Positions 55 through 42,710 of a stretch of DNA of 64,000 nucleotides are shown here, piece by piece. Every line of letters starts with the position of its first letter. Positions within the stretch are counted from its first letter, which is position 1. Source of the stretch: Peptoniphilaceae bacterium (GTDB taxonomy: Bacteria > Bacillota > Clostridia > Tissierellales > Peptoniphilaceae). The stretch is taken from the NCBI GenBank assembly GCA_052090825.1, contig JBQDBK010000011.1, forward strand, positions 2,103-66,102, given 5' to 3'. The position numbers were made by a program, and so were the translations under genes. A model generated the notes under the pieces. The model saw nothing but the letters and a program-made list of their open reading frames with translations. It was not told where the DNA came from and did no database searches.

Positions 55-88
55 AGTATCTAGATATTTATCTAGATACTTTTATTTT
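55..88. terminator. Bidirectional intrinsic terminator between convergent genes
   Basis: Perfect inverted repeat AGTATCTAGATA (55-66) / TATCTAGATACT (69-80), with an A-run before and a T-run after. Confidence 0.7.
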
Positions 89-2354
89 ATAAAGACATTA
101 ATACTTTTTCAGGTGTTATAGGTAAAGATCTATAAGATTTATTTATACCATTTAATAAAGCTCCAGCTATTGCTGGTGCAGGAGTATTTATTACTATTTC
201 ACCAATACTTTTAGCTCCATAAGGACCAGTAGGTTCAAAACTTTCTATAAAATCTATGTGAATATTACCAAAGTCTATTCTAGAAGGAATTTTATAGGTA
301 AAGAAATCATTAGTGGTTATCATACCCTTACTGTTATACCTAACTTCTTCAAATAAACTATATCCTATACCTTGAACTACTCCACCTTCAGCTTGAACTT
401 TTGCTAAAGATTTATTCATAACTTTACCGCAATCTACTATACCTACATAATCTAAAATTTTGATTTCGCCTGTTAATAAATCTGTTTCAATTTTTGCAAA
501 GCCGGCCATAAAAGGAGGAGGCGAATCTTCATTTCCAAAGGAACCTGTAGATATAATATTTTTACCATTCATTCCAGTAGTAAGCTTAGTCGCTAAATCC
601 TTTATAGATATAGACTTACCTTTTCCAATCAATTCTTTTCCGTTAAAATCTATTAAATCGGGATCAACATCCAAAAACTCAGCTGCTTCTTTCTTTATAT
701 TATCAATCATATTTTTAGAGCAATTTACAACTGCATTACCTGTAGTGTATACACCACTAGAAGCATAAGAACCGGGATCATAAGGAGTAGCGTCTGTATC
801 AGCAACAACAAGAGAAATGTTGTCTAAATCAGTTTTTAAAGTTTCAGCTGCAATTTGAGTCATTACAGTATCAGTTCCTGTTCCATTATCAGTAGAGCTG
901 ACAAATAAAGTATAATCTCCACCCTCATTAAGCTTTAATTGAGCTGTAGAAGTATCTATTTCAGCTATACCAGACCCTTGCATAGTAATAGAACAACCGA
1001 CACTTAAAATCTTATTAGGGGATATTTTTTTGTAAGGGTATATATCATCCCAACCTATAAGTTTCTTACCTTTAATTAAGCATTCTTTTAGTCGAGAAGA
1101 TCGTATATCCTTATCAAAGGACATTGTGTAGTCACCTTCTTGAACCAAATTTTTTAATCTAAGTTCAATTGGATCCATACCTATTTCTTTTGCTAATTGG
1201 TTTATAGCAGATTCAACAGCAAAACAACCTTGAGTTGCACCAAAGCCTCGGAAAGCACCAGCAGGTTGTTTATTAGTATAGACAACTTTAGCTTTAAAAC
1301 GAGTAGCCTTAGGTGTTCTATATAAAGGTAGGGTTTTTTCGCCAGCTAGTTTTGCTGTTACCCAAGCGTGAATTCCATAAGCTCCTTGATCAGATAGTAG
1401 ACTTATATCTATAGAATTTAATATACCATTTTCTTCAGCGCCTATTTTAATTCTAATTTTCATAGCATGTCTACTATTTGTAGAGTAAGCTGTTTCTTTT
1501 CTGCTTAAGATTAATTTAGAAGGTTTTCTTGTAATATAAGTTACTAAAGCAGCATAAACATCTGTTTCTGAAGTTTGTTTTGCTCCAAATCCTCCTCCTA
1601 TTCTAGGTTTAATAACTCTAACCTTACTAGAAGGTATTTCTAAAGCTCTAGCTACATGTCTTTTTACATGAAAGGGAACTTGAGTAGAACTTATAATTAC
1701 TAATCTATCAAAAGTATCTATATAAGCATGACTCCTAAATGTTTCCATCATAGATTGTTCTTGTGCTTGAGTTGTATAAACTTCATCAATTTTAATAGGA
1801 GATTTTTCATATTCATCATCAACATCTCCGCCAAAACTTATATTGTGAGCTCCAACAATATTTTTATCATAGTCACATAAGACAACAGAATCTGGCAAAT
1901 GACAAAAAGGTTTATAAGAATGAAGAGCAGGACCTTCTTCTGCTTTTTCTGGATCTAATACAGGCTCTAAAACTTCATACTGAACTTTTATAAGTTTCAT
2001 AGCCTTAATAGCATTTTTTTCAGTATCAGCAGCGATAATAGCCACTGGATCACCTACAAATCTAACATGTTTATCAAGGATTAACATATCATATGGAGAT
2101 GTTTCTGGGAAAGATTGGCCAGCCGTAGTATACCTAGTCTTAGGAACATCCTCGTGCGTTAATATACATTCCACTCCAGGAATTTTCATGGCTAGTGAAG
2201 TATCAATACTTTTTATAAGAGCATTTGGATGGGGAGATCTTAGTAACTTTATAATTAAACTTTCCTTATCAGCAAGATCATTAGTATATATTTTTCTACC
2301 TTGAAGTATAGAGGTTGAGTCTAATTTTTTAATTTTTTTACCAATATATTTCAT
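87..2354 (-). CDS. Xanthine dehydrogenase / aldehyde oxidase family molybdopterin-binding large subunit
   Basis: 755-aa ORF with the family-typical RIGGGFGAKQ motif. It is abutted by a 2Fe-2S subunit gene and an FAD subunit gene. Confidence 0.85.
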   Translation of the reverse strand: MKYIGKKIKKLDSTSILQGRKIYTNDLADKESLIIKLLRSPHPNALIKSIDTSLAMKIPGVECILTHEDVPKTRYTTAGQSFPETSPYDMLILDKHVRFVGDPVAIIAADTEKNAIKAMKLIKVQYEVLEPVLDPEKAEEGPALHSYKPFCHLPDSVVLCDYDKNIVGAHNISFGGDVDDEYEKSPIKIDEVYTTQAQEQSMMETFRSHAYIDTFDRLVIISSTQVPFHVKRHVARALEIPSSKVRVIKPRIGGGFGAKQTSETDVYAALVTYITRKPSKLILSRKETAYSTNSRHAMKIRIKIGAEENGILNSIDISLLSDQGAYGIHAWVTAKLAGEKTLPLYRTPKATRFKAKVVYTNKQPAGAFRGFGATQGCFAVESAINQLAKEIGMDPIELRLKNLVQEGDYTMSFDKDIRSSRLKECLIKGKKLIGWDDIYPYKKISPNKILSVGCSITMQGSGIAEIDTSTAQLKLNEGGDYTLFVSSTDNGTGTDTVMTQIAAETLKTDLDNISLVVADTDATPYDPGSYASSGVYTTGNAVVNCSKNMIDNIKKEAAEFLDVDPDLIDFNGKELIGKGKSISIKDLATKLTTGMNGKNIISTGSFGNEDSPPPFMAGFAKIETDLLTGEIKILDYVGIVDCGKVMNKSLAKVQAEGGVVQGIGYSLFEEVRYNSKGMITTNDFFTYKIPSRIDFGNIHIDFIESFEPTGPYGAKSIGEIVINTPAPAIAGALLNGINKSYRSLPITPEKVLMSL

Positions 2355-2804
2355 TTAAACCTCCAAATATTTTTTCACTGCACGTAACTGACTCTCATAT
2401 CCAGTACATCTACATAAATTACCGCTAAGATATTCTTTAATAGTTTGTTCATTTACTTTTTCTTTACTTCTTTTTAAAGAAACAAGATTAACTATAAATC
2501 CAGATGAACAATAACCACATTGATCAGCACCTTCTTCTGCCATATATTCTCTTAGTTTCTCTGTTTCTTCAGTAAGACCTTCAAGAGTTGTTATTTTTGA
2601 ATCTTGACATCTAATAGCTAATGTAGTGCAGCTAAGCTTAGGTAGGTCGTCTATAAGTACAGTGCAAAGTCCACAAGACATAGATCCACAACCACAACGT
2701 ACAGAAGTATAAGATAAATCTCTAAGCACATTTAATAATCTATCTTCTGGATTAATATCAATGTTGTGTATTCTATTGTTAACATTTAATTTAATATTCA
2801 TCAA
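2355..2804 (-). CDS. (2Fe-2S)-binding small subunit of the molybdoenzyme
   Basis: 149 aa with two Cys clusters, CGCGSMSCGLC and CGYCSSG...CRCTGY, typical of XdhC/CoxS-type iron-sulfur subunits. Its stop abuts the start of the large subunit gene. Confidence 0.9.
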   Translation of the reverse strand: MMNIKLNVNNRIHNIDINPEDRLLNVLRDLSYTSVRCGCGSMSCGLCTVLIDDLPKLSCTTLAIRCQDSKITTLEGLTEETEKLREYMAEEGADQCGYCSSGFIVNLVSLKRSKEKVNEQTIKEYLSGNLCRCTGYESQLRAVKKYLEV

Positions 2805-3612
2805 TATCCTCCAAATTACAAATAGTTCTTTTAAATAAATTTTTTGCTAATTTTTCTCTAAATTCTTTACTAGCCCTAGAGTTTGAAGCGAAATATACAT
2901 CTTTAGTTAGATTTTCACAGATTTCATTAATCATATTTTCATCTATTTTATTATTAGTAAGTAATTGTGAAGTTTTACTAGCAAGAGTCGCCCTTTGTGG
3001 CCTAGCGCCAAAAGCTACCTTATAATTACCATCAGAATTAGAGATAGCTATGTTTATTAAAGAAAGGTTAGTTTTTGTACTTCTTAAAGCATTAAACTCA
3101 GCCTTTAAGACTTCCTTTTTTATATAAATATGAGTTAAAATATCTTTTTTTGTTTCTTTTTTTAAAAATTCGTCAAGTTTAATTCTGCCCATCTTATATA
3201 AATTAACTTCTGCGTCTAATACTAAAAGTGCAGTTAAGAAGTCAGAAAAACCATACTTAGAATATACACTTGCTCCAACTGTGACAGAATTTTTAAATTG
3301 AGTGCCAACTATATATTTAATTGATTTTTGTAAAATATTATCTGCAAAATCTTTTAAAGAGTTACTTCTTTCTATATCTCCATAAGTTACGTAAGCCCCT
3401 ATAATAAATTCATTGTCATTTTCCTCTATAGTATTAAGGCTTAGTTTAGACAAATCAATGGCAGTTTGGTAATTTTTTGAAGAAAAATTTAAAAAAGTTG
3501 TTCCACCTAAAACAATATTATTTTTAGAAGAATGTAAAATTTCATACGCTTCATCTAATGAATCAGGAACAATATAATTTTTTATTTCAAACACATATAC
3601 AACCCCTTTCAA
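2791..3612 (-). CDS. FAD-binding (CoxM/XdhB-like) medium subunit of the molybdoenzyme
   Basis: 273 aa, with a 14-nt overlap onto the FeS subunit gene. Size and position fit the flavoprotein subunit, but the sequence match is weaker by eye. The start codon is uncertain. Confidence 0.65.
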   Translation of the reverse strand: MKGVVYVFEIKNYIVPDSLDEAYEILHSSKNNIVLGGTTFLNFSSKNYQTAIDLSKLSLNTIEENDNEFIIGAYVTYGDIERSNSLKDFADNILQKSIKYIVGTQFKNSVTVGASVYSKYGFSDFLTALLVLDAEVNLYKMGRIKLDEFLKKETKKDILTHIYIKKEVLKAEFNALRSTKTNLSLINIAISNSDGNYKVAFGARPQRATLASKTSQLLTNNKIDENMINEICENLTKDVYFASNSRASKEFREKLAKNLFKRTICNLEDIDEY

Positions 3613-9672: not shown

Positions 9673-10488
9673 ATGATTTATTTTTGTCCAACACCAATTG
9701 GTAATTTAAAAGATATAAGCTTAAGAACATTAGATATATTGAAAAAAGTTGATATAATAGCTGCCGAAGATACAAGAGTGAGTTTGAAGTTATTAAGCAC
9801 TTATAATATAAAAAAAAGACTTATTAGTTATCATAAATTTAATGAAAAATCTCAATCTGAAGAAATTATAAAGTTATCAAAAGAAAATAATATAGCAATA
9901 ATAAGCGATGCAGGGCTACCTGGTATAAGTGATCCAGGGGAAATATTAGCTAAAAGATTGATTGAAGAAAACATAGATTTTCAAGTTATACCTGGAGCAA
10001 ATGCTGCTCTTACAGCTTTAGTTTTATCTGGAATAAGTAGCCAACATTTTTTATTTTATGGCTTTTTAACTTCTAAATCTTCACATAGGAAAAAAGAGCT
10101 TAAAGAATTAGAAAATAATCCATATACTTTAATTTTTTATGAATCTCCACATAGGTTGATGTCTATGTTAGAAGATCTTTACGAAATATTTGGCGATAGA
10201 AAAATTTCTATATCTAGAGAATTAACTAAGATGTATGAAGAAACTTATAGAGGAGACCTATCTGAAATCTTAAATAATAAAGAATATGTAAAGTTAAAAG
10301 GTGAATTTGTAGTTGTTGTAGAGGGTAAAGCTAGAGTTAAAGAAGAGAACATAGATGTAAGAAAGCTATTAAAAGAAAAAATAGAATCTGGTATAAAGAA
10401 ATCCCAAGCAGTCAAAGAAATTTCCAAAGAATATAATATTTCGAAAAATGACCTATATAAAGTAAGCTTGGAGGTAGACAATGAATGA
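9673..10488 (+). CDS. rsmI: 16S rRNA (cytidine1402-2'-O)-methyltransferase RsmI
   Basis: The N-terminus PTPIGNLKDISLRTLDILKKVDIIAAEDTR is typical of RsmI tetrapyrrole-methylase-fold enzymes. Starts 1 nt after the preceding stop. Confidence 0.9.
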   Translation: MIYFCPTPIGNLKDISLRTLDILKKVDIIAAEDTRVSLKLLSTYNIKKRLISYHKFNEKSQSEEIIKLSKENNIAIISDAGLPGISDPGEILAKRLIEENIDFQVIPGANAALTALVLSGISSQHFLFYGFLTSKSSHRKKELKELENNPYTLIFYESPHRLMSMLEDLYEIFGDRKISISRELTKMYEETYRGDLSEILNNKEYVKLKGEFVVVVEGKARVKEENIDVRKLLKEKIESGIKKSQAVKEISKEYNISKNDLYKVSLEVDNE

Positions 10489-11440
10489 CTTCAATGAAAT
10501 GAAAGAGGATATAAAAGAATTAAATTATCTTTTAAAAAATAAATATAATAAATTCTTTTCCATGCCTAGAGAAAGTTTTAGGGTTGAAGTTTTAAATGAA
10601 ATAGGAAAATTTTCAAGTTTAGAAAAGCTTTCTAATAAAAAGTTAAAAGAATTTGGTTTGGTAGTAGGTGTGGATGGGTCAGTGAATAAGGTAGGAGGAA
10701 GCTATCCTCACTATATTGAATTATATCAAGCTCTGGCTAAACCAACTATAGGAGAAGATTTGTTTTCTAATAGTTATTATAGTCCTATGCTAAGTGGTAA
10801 TACATCAGAAGATGAAAAACTTGAAATCAATAAGAGAGAAAAATTATTAGCTAGTATAGAGTTAGATGTAGCTATTAAGTCTGTAAAGTATCATAAACCA
10901 TCTATACTTATGATGGATGGAGGATTAATAAGATATAAAATTCATGATCAATATAATTATGAAGAATTAATAAGTTTATGTGAAAAAAATTCAGTTGTTA
11001 TAGTAGGAGTAATAAAAGATTTAAAGACGAATGTAATATCAAGAACCTTAAATGAAGACTTATCTTTATACGATAGAGAATTACTTTATGGAAAACTTAA
11101 CAAGGGTGATTTTATTGAAATAAAAGATGAATATAATAAGAAGTCTGAAGAAAAGGATAGTGATGAAGGATTAGTATCTGCTTTTTTAAATACATCCAGC
11201 TCAGCTATGGCAATAGGCCTAGATTTAATAAAATCGCAGAGAGAATATATTAAAGATGTTGCAAATCTAGTTTATACTTTAACTCCAAATAATTCTAGAG
11301 GAGTACCCTTATGGTTAGATATAGTAGATAATGAAGTTAAGATAACAGATCTTATGATTGAATCTATGTTAGAGGAGTACTTAGATAGAGATATATATGA
11401 AAGGTTTTTTGTTTCTGAAAGAGATAGGAGAGGAATATGA
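10481..11440 (+). CDS. NurA-like nuclease (RNase-H-fold DNA end-processing nuclease family)
   Basis: 319 aa with the ordered acidic motifs VGVDGS, SIELD and MMDGGL, which resemble the catalytic D..E..D arrangement of NurA. The ATG overlaps the rsmI stop (ATGAATGA) and GGAGG lies 6 nt upstream. Partnered with a HerA-type ATPase gene. Confidence 0.6.
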   Translation: MNDFNEMKEDIKELNYLLKNKYNKFFSMPRESFRVEVLNEIGKFSSLEKLSNKKLKEFGLVVGVDGSVNKVGGSYPHYIELYQALAKPTIGEDLFSNSYYSPMLSGNTSEDEKLEINKREKLLASIELDVAIKSVKYHKPSILMMDGGLIRYKIHDQYNYEELISLCEKNSVVIVGVIKDLKTNVISRTLNEDLSLYDRELLYGKLNKGDFIEIKDEYNKKSEEKDSDEGLVSAFLNTSSSAMAIGLDLIKSQREYIKDVANLVYTLTPNNSRGVPLWLDIVDNEVKITDLMIESMLEEYLDRDIYERFFVSERDRRGI

Positions 11441-13284
11441 AAGTAGTTGGAATAACAACAGCTCAAGAAGTTTTTATAGGTTCTAGAGATAGAAATTTTA
11501 GAATGAATGAGTTTTTAATAATAGAAGATTCAGTTCAAGGAGATCTTGTAGGTGAGATTGTAGATGCTAAAACTTTTAATAGATATATCCCCTTAAATAT
11601 AGGCGGAGATTTCATAGATGCTTCTGTTATAGAATCTCTTAGGGCTATGGGGTATGACGTCAATGAAGAGACTATATATATAGGAAAACTAAGATTATTA
11701 AGAGAGGCACAATATCCCGTGCTAACAGGAAGCAGCATTAGAATACCAGAATTTAATGAAGTAAAAAAAATAATTGCCCCAACTCATCCAAAGGAAGGTC
11801 TTGTTTTAGGTATAATAAGAAACTCTGATTCTTTAACTAAAAAGATGGATGATTCATATAAAAATTTACTAGATATATATGAGGATGGAAACTATTTAAA
11901 CCAGCATGAAGTACCCTATGTTCTAGACTATAAATCTATGCATGAATATCCTCATATTGGAGTATTTGGAGGTTCTGGATCGGGTAAAAGTTTTGGGCTA
12001 AGGGTTATGCTTGAAGAGTTAATGAATAAAGATATTCCTACTGTAGTTTTAGACCCTCATTATGAGATGTCTTTTTCAGACAAGTCTGAGTCAAATTATT
12101 CACGAGATTATAAGGGGAAATTTTATAATCTTCAAATAGGAATAGATGTAGGGATAAGATTTGAAGATTTAAGTGTGACAGATATTAAGAATTTATTGAA
12201 TACCTCATCTCATTTAACTGAGTCTATGAGTAATAGTGTTGATTTACTTTTTAGTAGGGGAGCTAATTATCATAGTTTTTCCAATAAGTTAAGATATTTA
12301 GTTGAAGCTCAAGAGTTGGGTAGTTTAGATAAAATAGATGAGAAGATAAATTATGCTGATACGCCTCAAGAAAGAGAAGAGTGGGAAAAAAGAAAAAAAA
12401 TATACATGAAATATGATAAATTTTGTCCTAATCAATCTGTAAGAGGTATCATGTGGAGATTAAATAGGCTTTATAATGAAGGGATATTTAATAATGATAT
12501 TTCTAAAATAGTAGATGGAATAAAAGCTGGAAAATTAGTAGTAATACAAGGTTCTACCAGAATAATACAAGTATTTTCAACTTATTTATTAAATAAATTA
12601 TATTATGAGAGAAGAGAATATAGAGAAGCTAAGTATAGGAATGAAATTAAAGAATTTTTCCCGCCTTTTATAATAGTAACGGATGAAGCGCATAATTTTG
12701 CTCCTAAAGGTTATGATACTCCTTCAAAATCAATTTTAAAGGAAATTTCGCAAGAGGGTAGGAAGTATGGTGTATTTTTAGTATTAGCAACTCAAAGGCC
12801 TACTCTTTTAGATGAGACAATAACAGCCCAATTAAATACAAAATTCATTTTTAGGACTGTTAGAGCTTCTGATATAGATACAATAAAAGAAGAAACTGAT
12901 ATATCCTCAGAAGAATCAAGAAGACTACCTTACTTAATGACAGGAGATGTTTTTATATCTTCTGCAAAATTAGGTAGAACTTCTTACGTAAGGATAAGAT
13001 CAGCTCATACAACATCACCTCATAAAGAAAATCCTTTTGATGAATTATTGGGCATAAAATCCAAAGAAAATAAAGATTTTTTAAATTATATAGAAGATTT
13101 TATGCCTATTTCAGTAGCTACAGATTGTCTATCTATCATACAAGAAATAAATAATAGATATTCTATCAATTATACGATGGAACAATTTAAATTAAAGTTA
13201 GAAGAACTCGAGAAAAGTGGGCTTATAGAAGTTGAAGATACTTTTATAGGAAAGCAGTATATTTTTAAAAATAAGGAAATCTAA
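11437..13284 (+). CDS. HerA-type (FtsK/HerA superfamily, DUF87) hexameric ATPase/translocase
   Basis: N-terminal barrel-like region, Walker A GGSGSGKSF, Walker B IIVTDEAHNF, then ATQRPT...FIFR. ATGA overlap with the nurA-like stop. About 90 extra C-terminal residues follow the ATPase core. Confidence 0.8.
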   Translation: MKVVGITTAQEVFIGSRDRNFRMNEFLIIEDSVQGDLVGEIVDAKTFNRYIPLNIGGDFIDASVIESLRAMGYDVNEETIYIGKLRLLREAQYPVLTGSSIRIPEFNEVKKIIAPTHPKEGLVLGIIRNSDSLTKKMDDSYKNLLDIYEDGNYLNQHEVPYVLDYKSMHEYPHIGVFGGSGSGKSFGLRVMLEELMNKDIPTVVLDPHYEMSFSDKSESNYSRDYKGKFYNLQIGIDVGIRFEDLSVTDIKNLLNTSSHLTESMSNSVDLLFSRGANYHSFSNKLRYLVEAQELGSLDKIDEKINYADTPQEREEWEKRKKIYMKYDKFCPNQSVRGIMWRLNRLYNEGIFNNDISKIVDGIKAGKLVVIQGSTRIIQVFSTYLLNKLYYERREYREAKYRNEIKEFFPPFIIVTDEAHNFAPKGYDTPSKSILKEISQEGRKYGVFLVLATQRPTLLDETITAQLNTKFIFRTVRASDIDTIKEETDISSEESRRLPYLMTGDVFISSAKLGRTSYVRIRSAHTTSPHKENPFDELLGIKSKENKDFLNYIEDFMPISVATDCLSIIQEINNRYSINYTMEQFKLKLEELEKSGLIEVEDTFIGKQYIFKNKEI

Positions 13285-15651: not shown

Positions 15652-17085
15652 TTATTTTCTTTTTTTTATGGAACCGATAATTCCCCTAGCTATCTCTCTT
15701 CCTATTTGACGGCTTATAGTATAGGCAAAAGAATTAAATATGGAAGAAATAAAGTCTTTATTATCTTTAGAAGTACTATTAGCTTTTTTTTCATCAACTA
15801 TATCTATTTTTTTGAACTTTCTTTGTAAGATTTCATAGGCTGATTCTCTATCTATAATTTTTTTGTATTTATTATTTAGTTTTGATAAATTAATAATATC
15901 ATTATAATCAGTTTGAGTTAAAGTTTCAAAAGATGAATGAGGAGGGAATATTAAAGCTTTTTTAGAAAAGGTTGGAGAGCCATCTACATCTATAGTGCTT
16001 ATAATAGCTTCTCCAGTTCTTAAAGTAGATAAATCATTTTCAAGATTAAGATTTTCATCCTGTCTTAAAGTTTTTGAAATGTCCCTTATATTTTTCATTT
16101 CTTTTGGAGAAAAAGCTCTTAACTGATGAATTATTTTATTTCCTAGTTGAGATGATATAGAATCTGGGATATCCATAGGATTTTGGGTTACAAAATATAT
16201 TCCAATACCCTTAGAGCGTATTAATCTAACAACTTGATTAATTTTTTCTAAAATAATTTCACTAGAATTATTAAATAATAAATGAGCTTCATCAAAGAAA
16301 AATACTAATTTAGGAAGATTCTGATCACCCACTTCTGGAAGCTCTTCGAATAACTCAGAAAGAAGCCATAATAAAAACATAGAATAAACTGTAGGATTAT
16401 TAATCAATTTTTCACTAGATAAAATATTTATATATCCTCTACCTAAATCATCTTTTCTAAATAAGTCTCTAATATCTAAGGATGGTTCATTAAAAAATAG
16501 ATCAGCACCTAAATCTTCTAAATATAAAAGTTTTCTTCTAATTGCATTTATAGATTGATTAGATATATTCCCGAATTCAGATGAGAATTCTTGTCTTTTT
16601 TCTGACATCAACTTAAGAATAGAAGTTAGATCCTTTAAGTCTAAGAGTAGAAGTCCCATTGAGTCAGCTATTCTAAAAGCAATATTTAATATTCCAGCTT
16701 GGGTATCATTTAATCCTAAAATTTGGGATAAAATAATTGGGCCCATTTCACTTACATTAATTCTGAGCGGAAGTCCTTTTTCTCCAAAAGTATCCCACAA
16801 TTCAACAGGGTAGGCATAATAGTTGAAATTATATATATTTAGTTCCTCTAACCTAGCAATAATTTTATCATTAGGACTTCCAGCTTTACATAGATTGGCA
16901 AGATCCCCTTTAACATCAGATAAAATCACTGGAATTCCAAGTTCTGAAAAAGACTCGGCTAAAACTTTTAAGGTTACTGTTTTTCCAGAGCCTGTAGCAC
17001 CACATATTAGACCATGTTGATTGATTTTATTAGATAATATATTAATATTTTCATTGTCACTTGTTTTTGCAAAAGTTATATTCAA
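15652..17085 (-). CDS. DUF853 / YjgR-like P-loop NTPase (HerA-like helicase domain)
   Basis: Walker A GATGSGKT, Walker B FFFDEAHLLF, basic C-terminal tail. TTG start at 17085-17083 is supported by AGGAGGT 5 nt upstream. Confidence 0.75.
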   Translation of the reverse strand: MNITFAKTSDNENINILSNKINQHGLICGATGSGKTVTLKVLAESFSELGIPVILSDVKGDLANLCKAGSPNDKIIARLEELNIYNFNYYAYPVELWDTFGEKGLPLRINVSEMGPIILSQILGLNDTQAGILNIAFRIADSMGLLLLDLKDLTSILKLMSEKRQEFSSEFGNISNQSINAIRRKLLYLEDLGADLFFNEPSLDIRDLFRKDDLGRGYINILSSEKLINNPTVYSMFLLWLLSELFEELPEVGDQNLPKLVFFFDEAHLLFNNSSEIILEKINQVVRLIRSKGIGIYFVTQNPMDIPDSISSQLGNKIIHQLRAFSPKEMKNIRDISKTLRQDENLNLENDLSTLRTGEAIISTIDVDGSPTFSKKALIFPPHSSFETLTQTDYNDIINLSKLNNKYKKIIDRESAYEILQRKFKKIDIVDEKKANSTSKDNKDFISSIFNSFAYTISRQIGREIARGIIGSIKKRK

Positions 17086-31539: not shown

Positions 31540-32502
31540 ATGTGGAAGACTATAGTAAGAAGATTTTTAATAATGATACCTCAGCTTTTTATTCTTAGTT
31601 TATTAGTGTTTATATTAGGTAAAATGATGCCAGGAGATCCATTTACAGGTATGGTAAATCCTAAAGTAGATCCTTCAATAATTGAAAAATTAAGAGTTGA
31701 ATCTGGATATTATGATCCATGGTACGTACAGTATTTTAATTGGATAAAAAGAGCCTTACATGGAAATTTAGGATTAAGCTATAATTACAATTTACCTGTT
31801 TTGAAGGTAATAGGACCAAGAGCTCTAAATAGTTTTGCTTTGTCTTTTATTTCTTTAATAATGATGTATATGATAGCTATACCTTTTGGTATATTTGCTG
31901 GTAAAAATGCTGGTTCAAAGTTTGATAAGGGTGTGGTATTTTTTAATTTCTTTACTTTAGCTATACCAAGCTTTGTACTTTATTTATTTATGATATTAAT
32001 ATTCGGTTATAAATTAGGATGGTTTCCAACAATAGGATCTGTAGCTTCAAATTTAGCAAAGGGTAGCTTGCCTTATTATCTAAGTAAACTACACCACATG
32101 ATACTACCAGCCTTATCTATGGCTATACTTGGAACTACAGGAACAATTCAATATTTAAGAAATGAAATAATAGATGCTAAAACACTAGACTATGTGAAAA
32201 CAGCAAGAAGTAAAGGTGTTCCAATGAGAAAAGTTTATACTAATCATATATTTAGAAATTCTTTATTACCAATAGCTGCTTTCTTTGGATTTCAAATATC
32301 AAATCTCTTAGCGGGATCTGTTATAGCTGAGTCTATATTTAACTATCAAGGAATGGGGAAATTCTTTTTAGAATCGATTAATACTAGAGACTATAGTGTT
32401 GTAACAGCACTTATATTAATATATGGATTTTTATTTTTATTAGGATCACTTTTGTCTGACATCACTATGAGTATAGTTGATCCAAGAATAAGAATAGAAT
32501 AG
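31540..32502 (+). CDS. Peptide ABC transporter permease (second system, OppB-like)
   Basis: 320-aa polytopic protein with the EAA-like region VKTARSKGVP. Confidence 0.85.
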   Translation: MWKTIVRRFLIMIPQLFILSLLVFILGKMMPGDPFTGMVNPKVDPSIIEKLRVESGYYDPWYVQYFNWIKRALHGNLGLSYNYNLPVLKVIGPRALNSFALSFISLIMMYMIAIPFGIFAGKNAGSKFDKGVVFFNFFTLAIPSFVLYLFMILIFGYKLGWFPTIGSVASNLAKGSLPYYLSKLHHMILPALSMAILGTTGTIQYLRNEIIDAKTLDYVKTARSKGVPMRKVYTNHIFRNSLLPIAAFFGFQISNLLAGSVIAESIFNYQGMGKFFLESINTRDYSVVTALILIYGFLFLLGSLLSDITMSIVDPRIRIE

Positions 32503-32505
32503 GAG

Positions 32506-33480
32506 GTGATCATATTGTCAAACTTAGAATTCAAACCAGAAATGGAAGATCCAGAACTTCTTATAAATAAAGAAAAAGAAGAAGAGCTGGCAGAGGAGAA
32601 ATTGAGAAGTGAAAATCCAGTTGGCTTCAGTGTTATTTTAAGAGAGTTTAAAAAAGATAAACTTGCAACGTTTTGTTTTTTTGCCTTAGTAGGATTTATT
32701 TTATTTGTTTTTATAGGATCTTTATTCGTGGATATGGATACCTTAAATAGAGTAGATATTTTAAGAAAATATGATCCGCCTTCATTTGAAAGTATTTGGG
32801 ATATACTAGGAAGAGATAATGGAGGAAAATCTATTTTTGGAATGTTATTAGTAGGAGCAAGAAATTCTATAACAATAGGTGTAGCAATAACTCTTTTAAC
32901 AACTTTACTAGGTCTAATAAGTGGATTAGCCATGGGTTATTATGGTGGATTAGTAGATAATATTATAATGAGAATTGTGGACTTTATAGGTACACTACCT
33001 ACACTTATGATAATTATAGTTTTTGTAACAATAGTACCAACTTATAACATATTATCATTTATTTTAATCATGACAGCTTTTTATTGGGTTGGAACTGCAA
33101 GGTTAGTTAGGTCAAAAGCTTTATCAGAAGGAAGAAGAGATTATGTAAATGCGTCTAAGATTATGGGTACAAATGATTTAAAAATAATGTTTGGAGGAAT
33201 TCTACCTAATATATCTTCTATAATAATAGTAGATGGAACTTTAGCTCTAGCAGCTAATATTGGAATAGAAACTTCTTTATCATTTTTAGGTTTTGGGTTT
33301 CCACCTAACATTCCATCTTTGGGGACTTTAATATCATTAGCATCAAAACCGGAAATAATACAGTATAAGACTTATGTTTGGCTACCAGCAGCCATAACAA
33401 TTTTATTTATGATGCTTTGTATAAATTATGTAGGACAAGCCTTAAGGAGAGCATCTGATGCTAAACAAAGACTTGGTTAA
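32506..33480 (+). CDS. Peptide ABC transporter permease (second system, OppC-like)
   Basis: 324 aa. GTG start is preceded by AGGAGG. Has an acidic N-terminal extension and then the OppC-type TM core (VNASKIMGTN). Confidence 0.8.
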   Translation: MIILSNLEFKPEMEDPELLINKEKEEELAEEKLRSENPVGFSVILREFKKDKLATFCFFALVGFILFVFIGSLFVDMDTLNRVDILRKYDPPSFESIWDILGRDNGGKSIFGMLLVGARNSITIGVAITLLTTLLGLISGLAMGYYGGLVDNIIMRIVDFIGTLPTLMIIIVFVTIVPTYNILSFILIMTAFYWVGTARLVRSKALSEGRRDYVNASKIMGTNDLKIMFGGILPNISSIIIVDGTLALAANIGIETSLSFLGFGFPPNIPSLGTLISLASKPEIIQYKTYVWLPAAITILFMMLCINYVGQALRRASDAKQRLG

Positions 33481-35808: not shown

Positions 35809-35850
35809 TTGACATGCCAAAAACAATCTTATACTATATCAGTATAGTAT
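35809..35850 (+). promoter_or_regulatory. Candidate sigma-A promoter with an overlapping 8-4-8 palindromic operator
   Basis: TTGACA (35809-35814), 17-nt spacer, TACTAT (35832-35837). A perfect inverted repeat ATACTATA-tcag-TATAGTAT (35831-35850) covers the -10 and the likely transcription start. Confidence 0.45.
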
Positions 35851-36019: not shown

Positions 36020-37954
36020 ATGTTATTTAAAACTAATCAAGAGCATGAAGAATTAAGAAAAGCAATTAGAGAATTTTCTGAAGCAGAAATAAAACCTATA
36101 GCATTTTCTTTAGATCAAAACAATGAATTTCCTGATGAAATTATTAAAAAAATTGGAGAAAATGGATGGATGGGCTTACCATATTCTAAAAAAGATGGTG
36201 GAGCTGGAAAAGATGTATTATCTTATGCAATTGCAGTAGAAGAACTTTCAAGAGTTGATGGTGGAGTAGGTGTAATTTTATCTGCACATACATCTTTGGG
36301 ATCTTATCCTATAGAAGCTTTTGGTACAGAGGAACAAAAGAAAAAATACTTAGTACCTTTAGCAAAAGGAGAAGCTATTGGTGCATTTGGTCTAACAGAA
36401 CCAGAAGCAGGAAGTGATGCTGGTGGGACTGAAACTGTAGCAGAACTAGATGGAGACCATTACATTTTAAATGGTAATAAAATATATATAACTAATGCAC
36501 CAAAAGCTGATTATTATATTGTTTTTGCAGTTACAACACCTGGAATAGGAACTCACGGTATATCAGCTTTTATAGTTGAAAGAGGATGGGAAGGATTTGG
36601 ATTTGGAGATCATTATGATAAATTAGGTATAAGATCTTCTTCTACAGCTGAATTAACATTTGATAATGTAAAAGTACCAAAAGAAAATCTATTAGGTAAA
36701 GAAGGACAAGGTTTTAGAATTGCAATGCAAACACTTGATGGTGGTCGTATTGGTATTGCGGCTCAAGCTTTAGGTATAGCTCAAGGAGCTTATGAAGCGG
36801 CTTTAAAATATGCTAAGGAAAGAATTCAATTTGGTAAACCAATTGCTAGACAACAAATTATTTCTTTTAAATTAGCTGATATGGCTACAAAATTAAGATG
36901 TGCTAGATTTCTAGTATATTCAGCAGCAGAAATGAAACAAAACCATGAAAATTATGGTATGGAAGCAGCCATGGCAAAACAATACGCTTCAGATGTATGT
37001 TTAGAAATTGTAAATGATGCTCTTCAAATACATGGTGGTGCTGGATATCTAAAAGGTATGGACGTAGAAAGATTCTATCGTGATGCTAAGATAACTACTA
37101 TTTATGAAGGAACAAATGAAATTCAAAGAGTAGTTATAGCTGCAAATATAATTGGTAAATTACCTAGAAGTAAAAGAGGTTCAGCAGGAGTAGCAGCAAA
37201 AAAAGAAGGGCCTATAACTGGAAATAGAAAAAGACAAATAATCAAGGCGGATACAGCTAAAGAGGCAGTAGATGAATTAGTTGCTAATCTTAAAAAAGAT
37301 GGATATGACTTTACCGTGGGAATAGATATAGATACTCCGATTTATGAGTCAGAAAGAGTAGTTAGTATTGGTAAAGGAATTGGCTCAAAAGAAAATTTAG
37401 AAATGGCAAGAGAGTTAGCTCATGCAGCTGGTGCTTCTTTAGGTAGTTCAAGACCAGTAGCTGAAACAATGAAACTTTTACCTCTAGAAAGATATGTAGG
37501 AATGTCTGGTCAAAAATTTAAGGGAAATTTATATATAGCTTGTGGTATTTCAGGAGCATCTCAACACCTTAAAGGAATAAAAGATGCATCTACTATTGTA
37601 GCTATTAATAAAAATTCTGGAGCACCTATCTTTAAAAATGCTGATTATGGAATAGTAGGAGATATGCACGAAATAATGCCACTTCTAGCTGAAGCTTTGG
37701 GAACAGGTGAAAAGAAAGAAGCTCCTCCAATGAAAAAAGTTAGAAGATCAAAACCTAGAAAATTAGCCCCAACTTATGGAGTATATGTATGTCCAGGTTG
37801 TGGATATGAATACGATCCAAATGTTGGAGATCCAGAAGGAGAAATTGATCCAGGAACAACTTTTGAAAAACTTCCAGATGATTGGACTTGTCCAGAATGT
37901 CAAGAAGAAAAACAAAACTTTATTGAAGAAGAATATCCAGAGGATAGAAAGTAA
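36020..37954 (+). CDS. Tri-domain fusion: acyl-CoA dehydrogenase + ETF-alpha C-terminal FAD domain + rubredoxin
   Basis: aa 1-~380 carry ACAD signatures ([21 protein letters not shown], catalytic-base context [10 protein letters not shown]). aa ~430-560 match the ETF-alpha FAD-domain signature ([29 protein letters not shown]). aa ~586-640 form a rubredoxin (CPGC ... CPEC). The reading frame is uninterrupted, and RBS AGAGGGG lies upstream. Confidence 0.85.
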
Positions 37955-37971
37955 TAAGGAGGATATAGATT

Positions 37972-39213
37972 ATGTATGCAGTTAGAAAAGTTACTGATGA
38001 CTTATATTGGGTTGGTGGAAATGACCACAGATTAGAATTATTCGAAAATATTTTTCCTATACCAAAGGGAGTTTCCTATAATTCATATTTATTACTAGAT
38101 AAAAAAACTGTTTTATTTGATTCAGTTGATTGGTCAATAGCTCGTGATTTAATAGAAAATATTAAGTCTGTACTTGATGGAAAAGACCTTGACTATTTTG
38201 TAATCCATCATATGGAACCTGATCATGCAGCTGGAATTGAAGAAGTTTGTATGAGATATCCAAATGTAAAACTTGTTTCAAGTGAACAAGGTTTTGAAAT
38301 AATGAGACAATTAGGATACGATTTAATAGAAAAACACGAATGTATAATTGTTAAAGAAGGCGACACTATGAACTTTGGTGAGCATACTTTTGCCTTTGTA
38401 GAAGCACCAATGGTACATTGGCCAGAAGTTATCTTAAGTTATGATACTAAAGATGGAGTATTATTTGCTGCAGATGCCTTTGGTACATTCGGAGCCTTAG
38501 ATGGTAAGTTGTTTAATGATGAAGTTAATTTTGATAGAGATTGGTTAGATGAAGCTAGAAGATATTATACTAATATTGTTGGTAAATATGGTCCTTTTGT
38601 TCAAGATGTATTAAAAAAAGCTTCTACTTTAGATATTAAATATATTTGTCCACTTCATGGTCCAGTTTGGAGAAATAATTTTGAATACATTATTGATAAA
38701 TATGACAAATGGTCAAAATATGAACCTGAAGAAACTGGTGTTATGATAGCTTATGCTTCAATGTATGGAAATACAGAACGTGCTGCCCAAGCTTTAGCTA
38801 GTGAGCTTTGTGATAAGGGTATGACAAATGTAGTTGTTCACGATGTATCAAATACACATATGTCTGAATTAATATCTGACTCTTTTAAATATTCTCATAT
38901 AGTTTTAGCTTCTGTAACTTACAACTTAGAAATTTATCCAATTATGAAAAACTTTATAATGGATATGGCAGCTTTGAACCTACAAAACAGAACTGTTGGA
39001 ATAATTGAAAATGGTAGTTGGGCTTGTACAGTAGGTGACAAGATGGAAGAGTTTGTAGAAGAGCAATTAAAATTAGTAGACGTTTTAAATGACAGAGTTA
39101 CAGTTAACTCGGCTTTAAATGAAGCTAATGCTAATGATATGCATAGTTTAGCTGATTCAATTTTAGAATCAATGGAAAAAATTAAAGAAATTAAAGAAAA
39201 ATTCAATAAATAA
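37972..39213 (+). CDS. Class-A flavodiiron protein (FprA / rubredoxin:oxygen or NO oxidoreductase type)
   Basis: 413 aa with a metallo-beta-lactamase-like diiron motif HHMEPDHAAG and a C-terminal flavodoxin-like domain (VMIAYASMYGNTE). RBS AAGGAGG upstream. Starts 17 nt after the fusion gene. Confidence 0.9.
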   Translation: MYAVRKVTDDLYWVGGNDHRLELFENIFPIPKGVSYNSYLLLDKKTVLFDSVDWSIARDLIENIKSVLDGKDLDYFVIHHMEPDHAAGIEEVCMRYPNVKLVSSEQGFEIMRQLGYDLIEKHECIIVKEGDTMNFGEHTFAFVEAPMVHWPEVILSYDTKDGVLFAADAFGTFGALDGKLFNDEVNFDRDWLDEARRYYTNIVGKYGPFVQDVLKKASTLDIKYICPLHGPVWRNNFEYIIDKYDKWSKYEPEETGVMIAYASMYGNTERAAQALASELCDKGMTNVVVHDVSNTHMSELISDSFKYSHIVLASVTYNLEIYPIMKNFIMDMAALNLQNRTVGIIENGSWACTVGDKMEEFVEEQLKLVDVLNDRVTVNSALNEANANDMHSLADSILESMEKIKEIKEKFNK

Positions 39214-39224
39214 ATATTTGATGT

Positions 39225-39267
39225 AAATAAACCATAGGTTATCTACCCTATGGTTTATTTATGTTTT
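39225..39267 (+). terminator. Intrinsic terminator after the flavodiiron gene
   Basis: AAATAAACCATAGG (39225-39238) / CCTATGGTTTATTT (39247-39260), followed by a T-rich tract. Confidence 0.8.
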
Positions 39268-39298
39268 TACAAGTCCTATAATTTAGTGACTAAATTAT

Positions 39299-40105: not shown

Positions 40106-41422
40106 TCAAATATTTGTTACAAAAATATTAGGAGCAGTATAGTAGTTTTTTCCTCCACCAATTGTAGGATTTTTACCTATTCTAATATAAGGTGCAATAA
40201 ATTCTTCGTCATATATAAACATACCGAGAACAGCTCTAAAGTCATTTAATTCTACTTGACCAAGTTTATTAAATTCCACAAACTTAATAGGATCCATTGA
40301 GTAAAATTCTTGATAAATATAGTTATTATTACAAGCAATATCTACTTTTTTATTCCAATTTTCTTGATTGAATTGTCTTCCAGGATATACACCATGGCTT
40401 CCATAATCATCAACAGGTTTTAATATATACTTATCTTTATTATCTTTTAATTCTTTTGAATGTTCAGTACTAAGGCTATTAGTATAAGGTATATGAGCTT
40501 TTAAAAATTTAATTTCTTCACTGTTTAAAAAGTTGAAAGTAGCTTGGTCTAAAAGTATTTTAAAGCTAAGTTTAGTATGCATTATTTGAGATCTAAAAGA
40601 TCCTAGCATCATAAAAGCATTATCATAATACGCTGAAATAAAATCTGTTAGCTCATTATAATGCTTCATAAACTCTACTGTTACAGCCCTTCTATAGACT
40701 AAGTCAATTTGGTAATCCTCATGCATTAGTTTGCCATCTATATATTTTAAATTTCTAATATCACAGATTATACAATTATAACCATTATCTTCATATACTT
40801 TTTTAAATTTTTCAAATTCATAGGTAGTCCCAATATCTAAGAAATCGACTATAGCAAGATTAGGTTTTTTATTATGGATTGTTTCATAAATTTTAGTGGA
40901 TTTTTTAACCCAAGGTGTAAATAAATCGACGTTTTCTATTTTATAAAAAGTTTGAAACTTTTTCATTGCTTTAGTTTCTAATAATAATTTTCCTATTTCA
41001 TTGTCTTCATTCATGGCAGATGATCCATCGGTATTAAATTCGCAAAATTTAAATCTATCTCCACCATTGTAAAAAACATCATATCTTGCAATAGGAACTG
41101 GTATATCGTAGCCAGGATCATGTAGAATTAAATTTTCTAAATTCTTAGGGAAATTAAATAATTTTCTATATTCCCTATTTGTTAAATATTCTTTGACAAC
41201 TTTTCTGCTTATATTCATTAATATTTTGCACATATTCGTAAAGTTATTTCTATCATCTTGGGAATAAAAAAGACCTTGGTAAATATGAGGCACAGGCTCT
41301 CCTTTATAAATTGCATTAGAATTTTTAACTTTAGATTTTAATTTTAGAAAATCTTCATAATATTCTTCTGGATTTTCTTTGATTATTTCATAATATTTTT
41401 TTACATATTTATCATTATACAT
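40106..41422 (-). CDS. ATP-grasp ligase of the glutathionylspermidine-synthase-like (YgiC/YjfC-like) type
   Basis: 438 aa. The segment ARYDVFYNGGDRFKFCEFNTDGSSAMNE resembles the R-x-D...E-x-N-x-D core of the GSP-synthetase family. An 8-nt overlap joins it to the upstream ligase gene. Substrates unknown. Confidence 0.5.
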   Translation of the reverse strand: MYNDKYVKKYYEIIKENPEEYYEDFLKLKSKVKNSNAIYKGEPVPHIYQGLFYSQDDRNNFTNMCKILMNISRKVVKEYLTNREYRKLFNFPKNLENLILHDPGYDIPVPIARYDVFYNGGDRFKFCEFNTDGSSAMNEDNEIGKLLLETKAMKKFQTFYKIENVDLFTPWVKKSTKIYETIHNKKPNLAIVDFLDIGTTYEFEKFKKVYEDNGYNCIICDIRNLKYIDGKLMHEDYQIDLVYRRAVTVEFMKHYNELTDFISAYYDNAFMMLGSFRSQIMHTKLSFKILLDQATFNFLNSEEIKFLKAHIPYTNSLSTEHSKELKDNKDKYILKPVDDYGSHGVYPGRQFNQENWNKKVDIACNNNYIYQEFYSMDPIKFVEFNKLGQVELNDFRAVLGMFIYDEEFIAPYIRIGKNPTIGGGKNYYTAPNIFVTNI

Positions 41423-42710
41423 AAAATTCCTCGATTCTATTAGACATTAAAGTTTCTTTAAAAGCTTTATTTTCTAAGTCTATTAAAAATTTATCTTTAG
41501 GATTAAGTCCTTGATTTAAAAGATTTATTAATGGTTTTAAATATTCTTTTTCTTCATTAGTAAGGCTTTTACTTGCAAGTTCTACTAAAAATTTACCATG
41601 TTCTAAAAGACTTTTATTTAAGTAAATTGTATTTAAGCCTTTATCCTTAGATTTTTCTTTTACAGCCATTACATCTTGGTAAGTTACTTTTTCGAAAAGC
41701 TCATACAGTATATGAAGATTTTCTTGAGAATAAAATAAACCTTTAATAAGTGCCACTGCAGAAAAATTTAAAGGGAAGTTTACACTATCAAACATCCTAA
41801 ACTCTAAATAATTTTTAACTCTTATGTCAGGAAAAACTATTGAAAGCATATGGAATATAAAATCTTCTGTAGGATTGTTAATATATAAATTTTTAAACTT
41901 TTCTTCTGTTTTGAATAATTTTCCATCTTTTTCTATAAATATTGGACTATTATTTATTATAAATTCCGCATATCTTTCATAAGATAAGTTTTTATCAAAA
42001 GCTAGACTCAAAAGACCAGATCTATCATTATCGGTATTTTCCCAAATAGTTTGTCTAAGATTATGTTTTTTGTATATTTCATTTTCAAATATAGGAGAAT
42101 TATCAAAAAGTGAGTACAAAATAGGAGAAATAGCAGAAGCTACAAAATACTTTAATTTAAAATCATTTTCATCTTTATAATCTATACTAATTTGAACAGA
42201 AGAAGTTCCTTTCATCATATTATATGCCAAAGTTCCTTTTTCCTTAAAGTGATTATACATGTATTTATACCTATTTTTGGGAAGAATTTTTATTTCATCA
42301 ATTTTCGTTTTAGGATGATAGCCAAGGGCCAAAATGCTCTGATTTTTTGAAGCAAAAATTTTATAGGCATTATTAATAAATTTTTTATAAATACAAACTA
42401 ATTCCTTAATTGTCTTTTTATAATTAATACTTACTTCGAATTGTGAACCTGGCTCTGTAGAAACATTTATTTCTTCAGACTCAAAACCTAGCATGTATCC
42501 ATTTTCTAAATGAGGAAGTCCATTGTAAATATTACATAATTCTCTTATGCTCTCTTCAACTCCATTTTTATTATAAAAAGAAATAGTTTTAAAACTATTA
42601 TTATCTATAATAAAATGCTCGAATTCAGTTCCTATACTAAATTCACTAGAATTTTTTTCGCCTTTTTTAATATAATCAATTACTTTATTAGTTATTATTT
42701 TAGAATCCAC
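41415..42710 (-). CDS. Glutamate--cysteine ligase family (GCS2-like carboxylate-amine ligase) protein
   Basis: 431 aa. The N-terminal SIGTEFEHFII and the later LEFRMFDS resemble glutamate-cysteine ligase family motifs. RBS GGAGG upstream. Confidence 0.55.
   Translation of the reverse strand: MDSKIITNKVIDYIKKGEKNSSEFSIGTEFEHFIIDNNSFKTISFYNKNGVEESIRELCNIYNGLPHLENGYMLGFESEEINVSTEPGSQFEVSINYKKTIKELVCIYKKFINNAYKIFASKNQSILALGYHPKTKIDEIKILPKNRYKYMYNHFKEKGTLAYNMMKGTSSVQISIDYKDENDFKLKYFVASAISPILYSLFDNSPIFENEIYKKHNLRQTIWENTDNDRSGLLSLAFDKNLSYERYAEFIINNSPIFIEKDGKLFKTEEKFKNLYINNPTEDFIFHMLSIVFPDIRVKNYLEFRMFDSVNFPLNFSAVALIKGLFYSQENLHILYELFEKVTYQDVMAVKEKSKDKGLNTIYLNKSLLEHGKFLVELASKSLTNEEKEYLKPLINLLNQGLNPKDKFLIDLENKAFKETLMSNRIEEFYV

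Follow-up and report, generated by a model that had tools for sequence, protein, structure and literature searches.

The window, as we call the whole stretch of 64,000 nucleotides analyzed here, has a G+C content of 28.5% and carries a two-gene operon on its plus strand. The first gene (36020..37954) is an uninterrupted ORF with an ATG start; its product of 644 amino acids, called BCR below, is a fusion of an acyl-CoA dehydrogenase (ACAD), the FAD domain of EtfA and a rubredoxin. The second gene (37972..39213, plus strand) begins 17 nt past the end of the first, in the same orientation, and encodes a flavodiiron protein (FDP) of 413 amino acids. The Shine-Dalgarno sequence of the FDP gene, AAGGAGG (37956..37962, plus strand), can be read within the 17-nt gap. 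The remaining part of the window is ordinary chromosome with genes for a xanthine-dehydrogenase-family enzyme, an ECF-type transporter, a NurA/HerA pair, SecA, PheRS, MutS2 and ArgRS, and with two opp operons. No ETF, Bcd or Rnf genes were found in the 64-kb window, and no rubredoxin reductase gene is encoded near BCR.

The ACAD module, which resembles butyryl-CoA dehydrogenase, comprises residues 1-380 (36020..37159, plus strand) and was recognized by Pfam, by sequence matches in PDB and by an AF2 model compared with Foldseek. It consists of Acyl-CoA_dh_N (residues 7-118, E 4.5e-38), Acyl-CoA_dh_M (residues 122-217, E 7e-26) and Acyl-CoA_dh_1 (residues 229-377, E 1e-51), and its putative catalytic residue, Glu363, lies in the motif IYEGT. 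The module is followed by linker 1 and a conserved beta-alpha unit (residues 381-440; 37160..37339, plus strand), delimited by conservation and AF2 and containing the invariant T400-G401-x-R403-K404. Residues 441-565 (37340..37714, plus strand) form a module corresponding to EtfA domain II, the domain that binds alpha-FAD. Here Pfam finds the ETF_alpha FAD-binding domain (residues 441-521, E 4e-26), in agreement with profile alignment and Foldseek, and the putative residues of the second FAD site are S477-R478-P479 and GISGASQH at positions 509-516. A basic linker 2 of low AF2 confidence (residues 566-587; 37715..37780, plus strand) contains the invariant A568-P569-P570-M571 and a further basic stretch at residues 572-581. 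It leads to the rubredoxin module (residues 588-636; 37781..37927, plus strand; Pfam Rubredoxin at 589-634, E 1.2e-18), identified also by PDB and Foldseek searches, whose predicted Fe ligands are C591 and C594 in CPGC (591-594) and C624 and C627 in CPEC (624-627). In the copies from Peptoniphilaceae the rubredoxin is followed by a short C-terminal tail, EEEYPEDRK, which is lacking from the copies of Clostridium and Lachnospiraceae.

This composition agrees with a preliminary description of the locus made from the sequence alone, which had proposed a three-part polypeptide containing only the C-terminal domain of EtfA, with no ETF-beta gene nearby. The ORF and the Pfam boundaries bear out the three parts. 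Of the EtfA/FixB models of NCBIfam, residues 443-560 match no more than the last third (positions 193-311 of about 312), and an ETF N-terminal domain was detected neither in BCR, by Pfam or NCBIfam, nor in the ORFs from 27.7 to 46.3 kb that were scanned. The same ORFs include no ETF subunit, ETF-beta among them. All motifs that the description had quoted, and the basic linker, are present.

The FDP contains two domains found by Pfam, a metallo-beta-lactamase-like diiron domain (ODP/Lactamase_B, residues 34-230) and a flavodoxin domain (Flavodoxin_1, residues 259-360), and the identification is supported by PDB matches and by the motifs of the diiron site. No rubredoxin or other extra redox domain was found by Pfam within the 413 residues, the rubredoxin being located on BCR. 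Since the protein has a beta-lactamase/ODP domain, a flavodoxin domain and no others, it belongs to class A. The motifs of the diiron ligands are the canonical ones, H80-x-E82-x-D84-H85, H149, D168 and H229, and the predicted FMN site was assigned from the match to the flavodoxin domain. The FDP gene is followed by a terminator-like hairpin (39227..39268, plus strand), read from the sequence, with a perfect 12-bp stem (39227-39238 and 39247-39258), an 8-nt loop and a T-rich tail, which marks the end of the operon. It was missed by a consensus scan because its stem has fewer G-C pairs than the scan expects.

Upstream of BCR, an opp-type ABC transporter operon ends in a terminator, after which comes an AT-rich leader of 677 nt that has no match in Rfam. 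A consensus scan weakly points to a promoter-like site, TTGACA-17-TACTAT (35809..35837, plus strand), 183 nt 5' of the BCR start codon. Promoter-like sites are no more common in this region than in shuffled sequence, and the site is therefore a candidate promoter only. Over its -10 hexamer lies a perfect palindrome of 8+4+8 nt (35831..35850, not assigned to a strand), ATACTATA-tcag-TATAGTAT, which is a candidate operator. No second copy free of mismatches occurs in the 64-kb window, and the palindrome was not encountered in those regions 5' of BCR that were examined in related loci. Three Peptoniphilus loci have a palindrome at about -55 that the upstream region in the window lacks.

Distribution of the fusion and its pairing with the FDP

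For a search of genomes we used a profile built on the EtfA-rubredoxin half of BCR, and we considered the best 80 loci, one per GTDB species; pairing, gaps and identities in these loci were computed by tblastn. The loci span Peptoniphilus and other Tissierellia, Clostridium, Lachnospiraceae (including Roseburia inulinivorans DSM 16841, locus L079), Oscillospiraceae/Butyricicoccus, Eubacterium, Erysipelotrichaceae and Acidaminococcus; Fusobacterium is not among these 80. In all of them (80/80) an FDP homolog, 58-82% identical, lies 3' of BCR on the same strand at a distance of 15-224 nt. The FDP motif H-x-E-x-D-H is likewise present in 80/80 loci, while YEGT, SRP and the four-cysteine rubredoxin motifs are found in 79 and GISGAxQH in 78 of the best 80. 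The BCR homologs are at least 70% identical to the window BCR over the full length, and their ACAD part is highly conserved. In R. inulinivorans the identity to the window pair is 73% for BCR and 63% for the FDP.

The preliminary description had considered that a stop or a frameshift might separate the domains. The ORF is uninterrupted, and in 78 of the best 80 loci the fusion is intact and full-length, the exceptions being a locus truncated where its contig ends and a metagenome-assembled genome with an in-frame stop. An origin of the fusion by assembly artefact is ruled out by its integrity in 78 of 80 independent genomes. Three long outliers among the homologous proteins (P0003, P0066 and P0089) contain internal duplications, which look like assembly errors of those records and not of the window.

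At the protein level, the uninterrupted fusion was observed in more than 120 clusters with an identity of 74% or more. The 120 matches listed are all from Firmicutes and at least 67% identical, and among them the best named ones for the window BCR are from Peptoniphilus obesi and P. catoniae (85% identity). A search of the C-terminal half of BCR against 1.84 billion representatives of clusters at 50% identity yielded 61 proteins with E of 1e-30 or lower, and the best 150 included one full-length three-domain representative (P0122), the rest being fragments or ordinary EtfA. The BCR family is compact. Databases give its members no label more specific than "acyl-CoA dehydrogenase family protein" or "butyryl-CoA dehydrogenase".

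An Rrf2-type gene occurs within 2.5 kb of the BCR-FDP pair in 14 of the 80 loci, mostly upstream, and Rrf2 regulators are described as frequent neighbors of the pair in gut Clostridia in the relevant part of PMC13404960. No Rrf2 regulator adjoins the operon in the window.

Counterpart in Fusobacterium nucleatum

The preliminary description, which knew of no biochemical characterization of this architecture, had overlooked the work of Bystrom and Wolthers (2024; Biochemistry 63:2352). [quoted passage not shown] The description had itself stated that a fusion already reported with a defined function would be merely annotated and not novel, and such a report exists. In F. nucleatum, BCR (FN1424) has the same order of three domains and is bicistronic with the class-A FDP FN1423; the locus tags FN1423-FN1424 are given in PMC12630350. 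According to the passage on its cofactors in PMC12528894, the F. nucleatum BCR has two FAD, of which the Bcd part and the Etf-alpha part hold one each, and its rubredoxin part carries an FeS centre. The complex is reported as a stoichiometric α4β4 assembly with oxidative turnover, in which butyryl-CoA is the electron donor and O2 is reduced to H2O (PMC12288474, PMC12528894, in the parts on this enzyme). For Roseburia inulinivorans and further gut Clostridia, the corresponding part of PMC13404960 applies the name BOOR to the same Pfam architecture beside a 'Flavodoxin_1-ODP' protein.

The window pair shares with the F. nucleatum system the Bcd, C-terminal EtfA and rubredoxin parts in the same order on one protein, the bicistronic arrangement with a two-domain FDP directly downstream, and the maintenance of the pair, which is kept across Firmicutes. 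It differs in its host, which is Peptoniphilus-like with a G+C content of 28%, in the EEEYPEDRK tail of the Peptoniphilaceae copies and in the lack of an adjoining Rrf2 gene. Orthology of the window pair to FN1424/FN1423 is suggested by the architecture, by synteny and by R. inulinivorans as an intermediate named in the literature. We estimate at about 85% the probability that the genes at 36020-37954 and 37972-39213 are a BOOR-type two-gene operon carrying electrons from butyryl-CoA to O2. The analysis itself establishes the architecture, the operon structure, the strict conservation of the pair and the presence of the motifs examined, whereas we infer by homology to the F. nucleatum enzyme which cofactors and substrate the window pair uses, that it assembles as α4β4 and that its acceptor is O2 and not NO. 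The window pair is most probably an ordinary member of an already published system, the biochemistry and distribution of which were published in 2024 and have been cited several times since, and it raises no new question.

The practical value of this assignment is in annotation, as the generic label "acyl-CoA dehydrogenase family protein" can be replaced by that of a BOOR-type oxygen-detoxifying system, which is here documented in a Peptoniphilus-like genome. The invariance of the BCR-FDP pair in 80 species-level genomes of several Firmicute families fits the view in the literature that anaerobes forming butyrate supply a soluble terminal oxidase with butyryl-CoA as its reductant.

Proposed electron path and alternatives

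In the proposed BOOR-type mechanism, the ACAD module of BCR would oxidize butyryl-CoA at its FAD, giving crotonyl-CoA, and Glu363 would probably act as the catalytic base. The best sequence match of this module in PDB is 5ol2_C, the Bcd of Clostridioides difficile (E 1.5e-136), and its AF2 model superimposes on 4l1f_A (Bcd of Acidaminococcus fermentans) and 5ol2_C with a target TM-score of 0.96 and 53-57% identity (Foldseek). From its identity of 48-57% to butyryl-CoA and short-chain dehydrogenases, we infer the probable acyl-CoA specificity of the window BCR. The top NCBIfam model for BCR, acryloyl-CoA reductase AcrC, scores 468 bits against a cutoff of 640 bits, and no equivalog model of NCBIfam reaches its own cutoff. 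These scores would be compatible with an ACAD module that in Peptoniphilus uses another short acyl-CoA, for example one from amino-acid fermentation, the pair then being an acyl-CoA:O2 oxidoreductase of a different specificity. We regard this as highly improbable, as the closest structures, at the identities given above, are those of genuine butyryl-CoA dehydrogenases, and the high conservation of the ACAD part among the BCR homologs of the best 80 loci suggests one substrate common to them. Butyrate production by Peptoniphilus, whose species are butyrate producers, also speaks for butyryl-CoA.

From the ACAD module, two electrons would pass singly to the second FAD on the tethered EtfA domain II module, and from there to the Fe(Cys)4 site of the C-terminal rubredoxin. 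The EtfA module aligns as a profile to residues 189-305 of 1efp_A and 204-328 of 5ol2_A and is 40-47% identical to EtfA chains in Foldseek alignments. The rubredoxin module matches PDB rubredoxins with E of about 1e-18 by sequence and with target TM-scores of 0.78-0.91 by Foldseek. The sequence of centers FAD, FAD and Fe(Cys)4, put forward in the preliminary description, coincides with the cofactors of the F. nucleatum protein as given in the passage of PMC12528894 cited above. The claim that the chain is self-contained did not hold, for it ends in the FDP encoded 17 nt downstream, which the description had overlooked.

The comparison with the Bcd-EtfAB complexes (C. difficile 5OL2; A. fermentans 4L1F/4KPU) concerns both flavin modules. 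The ACAD modules are close in sequence and fold, and the EtfA module of BCR corresponds to the domain II that carries alpha-FAD and touches Bcd in those complexes. In contrast to them, the BCR system has neither EtfB nor EtfA domain I, and hence no beta-FAD/NADH site and no bifurcation; its modules are joined in one chain with a rubredoxin; and its published direction is the oxidation of butyryl-CoA, not the reduction of crotonyl-CoA. Covalent tethering would stand in for EtfB and for domain I of EtfA, which would leave the protein without an NADH site and without electron bifurcation. The preliminary description was thus right that this is not a bifurcating Bcd-EtfAB complex, whereas the assay with NADH that it had proposed was off target, because the protein lacks the part of the bifurcating ETF that binds NADH (EtfB and EtfA domain I) and butyryl-CoA is the donor in the published work.

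The rubredoxin Fe(Cys)4 site would then reduce the FMN of the FDP, which we propose as the terminal reductase for O2, and the FMN would pass electrons to the diiron site, where O2 would be reduced to two H2O. As the reduction of O2 takes four electrons, two butyryl-CoA would be used per O2. This part of the path resembles the chains of NADH:rubredoxin oxidoreductase, rubredoxin and FDP (E. coli NorW/NorV, Moorella Hrb/FprA and D. gigas ROO), in which the rubredoxin Fe(Cys)4 site also gives single electrons to an FMN/diiron core and the FDP core is homologous. Unlike in those chains, the electron source in the window is an ACAD with an EtfA flavin and not an NAD(P)H-dependent reductase, and the rubredoxin is fused to the donor, being neither free nor fused to the FDP.

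By sequence, the FDP is matched in PDB best by the NorV core 6etb (E 1.7e-54) and further by Moorella FprA 1ycf and D. gigas ROO 1e5d. Since the best of these include the core of E. coli flavorubredoxin NorV and a Moorella FprA deposited as 'nitric oxide reductase', the pair might be mainly an NO reductase, passing butyryl-CoA electrons via rubredoxin to the diiron site for the conversion of NO to N2O in defence against nitrosative stress. Many class-A FDPs reduce both substrates, as stated in the part of the review devoted to these proteins (PMC12288474), and the selectivity of FDPs for O2 or NO is not readable from sequence. However, the identity between the FDP and NorV is moderate and limited to the shared core fold, and the only characterized enzyme of the BCR architecture, the F. 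nucleatum BOOR, is reported in the same review to have no NO reductase activity. We therefore consider a main role in NO reduction improbable.

Another alternative concerns the direction of the reaction. In the literature the fusion goes under the name 'butyryl-CoA reductase', and the E0' of the crotonyl-CoA/butyryl-CoA couple is about -10 mV (PMC12288474, in the passages on BOOR). A reductive role in vivo would make the protein a crotonyl-CoA reductase with electrons flowing from rubredoxin to the EtfA-type FAD and the ACAD FAD, the FDP being merely co-transcribed.

Typical rubredoxin potentials are close to that of the couple, and the reaction should therefore be reversible. Nevertheless, such a role is very unlikely: the pairing with the FDP is very tight and invariant in 80/80 of the best loci, which argues that BCR depends on the FDP as its obligate redox partner, the genes near BCR include none for a rubredoxin reductase, and the published enzyme is a stoichiometric α4β4 complex with oxidative turnover, as described in the passages of PMC12288474 and PMC12528894 that concern it.

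With the BOOR-type reading, the role of the operon would be, by homology with F. nucleatum, the removal of O2 at the expense of the weak reductant butyryl-CoA, so that NAD(P)H is spared. The crotonyl-CoA formed could be re-reduced by a bifurcating Bcd-EtfAB encoded elsewhere in the genome.

Family-specific elements of the fusion

Solved structures spanning all three modules of BCR were not found by PDB sequence searches or by Foldseek, which matched the modules separately. The full-length AF2 model has a mean pLDDT of 82 and a pTM of 0.60, with low confidence in both linkers. In the first of them, pLDDT is below 50 for residues 383-395, followed by a predicted strand (406-408) and a predicted helix (413-426). 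The beta-alpha unit to which these belong (residues 400-440) apparently lies outside the sequence matches to EtfA and outside the Foldseek alignments of about 125 columns with EtfA chains. One could speculate that the T-G-x-R-K unit and the A-P-P-M motif of linker 2 are undescribed family-specific elements that let the tethered EtfA domain II work without EtfB, either by replacing the EtfB arm or recognition loop or by forming a docking site for the FDP, but we hold this to be unlikely on balance.

Parts of the fusion also occur in other combinations. A protein of 257 amino acids (P0124) is a stand-alone EtfA-rubredoxin, and another of 555 amino acids (P0139) is an ACAD-EtfA without rubredoxin. 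Together they suggest a modular toolkit that could link other dehydrogenases to FDPs. If true, the toolkit and the family-specific elements would extend the known BOOR system and would not define a new one.

Apparent variants and probably faulty records among homologues of the fusion protein

When homologues of BCR, the 644-aa fusion of an acyl-CoA dehydrogenase, the EtfA FAD domain and rubredoxin, are clustered at 50% identity, two database records differ from it in domain content: P0124 (257 aa) is a stand-alone EtfA FAD domain with rubredoxin, and P0139 (555 aa) combines the dehydrogenase and the EtfA domain without rubredoxin. Both architectures were confirmed with Pfam and refer to the database records as found. 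Several other database homologues, whose length departs from about 640 aa in either direction, seem to result from faulty assembly or gene calling. P0003, P0066 and P0089 contain internal tandem duplications of 40-150 residues, and the N-terminus of P0121 is chimeric, carrying an Rnf-Nqr membrane domain. These four records should not be taken for genuine architectural variants. In a Filifactoraceae MAG, codon 108 of the BCR gene (L049:71-1966) is an in-frame TAA; the sequence is either misassembled there or belongs to a pseudogene.

Conserved segments of BCR and the region upstream of its gene

Two conserved segments of BCR, to which the matches to EtfA structures do not appear to extend, are a beta-alpha unit with an invariant T-G-x-R-K (residues 400-440, window 37217-37339), which lies N-terminal to the EtfA domain, and, within the basic linker, an A-P-P-M motif that is likewise invariant (residues 568-571, window 37721-37732). 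These segments might compensate for the absent EtfB or form a docking site for FDP, the class-A flavodiiron protein encoded downstream.

Upstream of the BCR gene lies a perfect palindrome, ATACTATA-tcag-TATAGTAT (window 35831-35850), which overlaps the -10 hexamer of a promoter-like site (TTGACA-17-TACTAT). It is the sole zero-mismatch copy in the window, and it did not turn up in the BCR upstream regions inspected at related loci.

Genes neighbouring the BCR-FDP pair

In 14 of the best 80 related loci listed (one per GTDB species), L072:10235-10648 among them, a small regulator of the Rrf2 family whose cysteines are conserved is encoded no more than 2.5 kb from the BCR-FDP pair; in 13 of these 14 it lies upstream of the pair. 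This is in line with a 2026 preprint that reported such a regulator in gut Clostridia (PMC13404960). No Rrf2-family regulator adjoins the BOOR operon (the BCR-FDP pair) of the window. A second FDP gene was found within 3.5 kb of the pair in L030 (Clostridium tertium; L030:10195-11409) and in L038 (L038:3367-4575).

In the window, two overlapping genes on the reverse strand (40106-42710), convergent with the BOOR operon and 0.9 kb beyond it, encode a member of glutamate-cysteine ligase family 2 (GCS2) and a glutathionylspermidine-synthase-like ATP-grasp protein. Their products might jointly synthesize a low-molecular-weight thiol, which would suit an oxidative-stress neighbourhood. Neither family is among the neighbour families common to at least three of the best 80 loci listed.

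Other features of the window

A 180-aa ORF on the reverse strand (32391-32933) is almost certainly not a gene; it lies antisense to the opp permease genes, with which it overlaps completely, and its translation is of low complexity, rich in Ser, Ile and Asn. Adjacent genes on the forward strand (10481-13284) encode a NurA-domain nuclease and a HerA-type (DUF87) ATPase, the genome harboring this pair being Firmicute-like; a separate HerA_C-like ATPase is encoded 2.4 kb from the pair on the opposite, reverse strand (15652-17085). Three reverse-strand genes (87-3612) encode the FAD-binding, [2Fe-2S] and molybdopterin-binding subunits of a molybdoenzyme of the xanthine dehydrogenase family.
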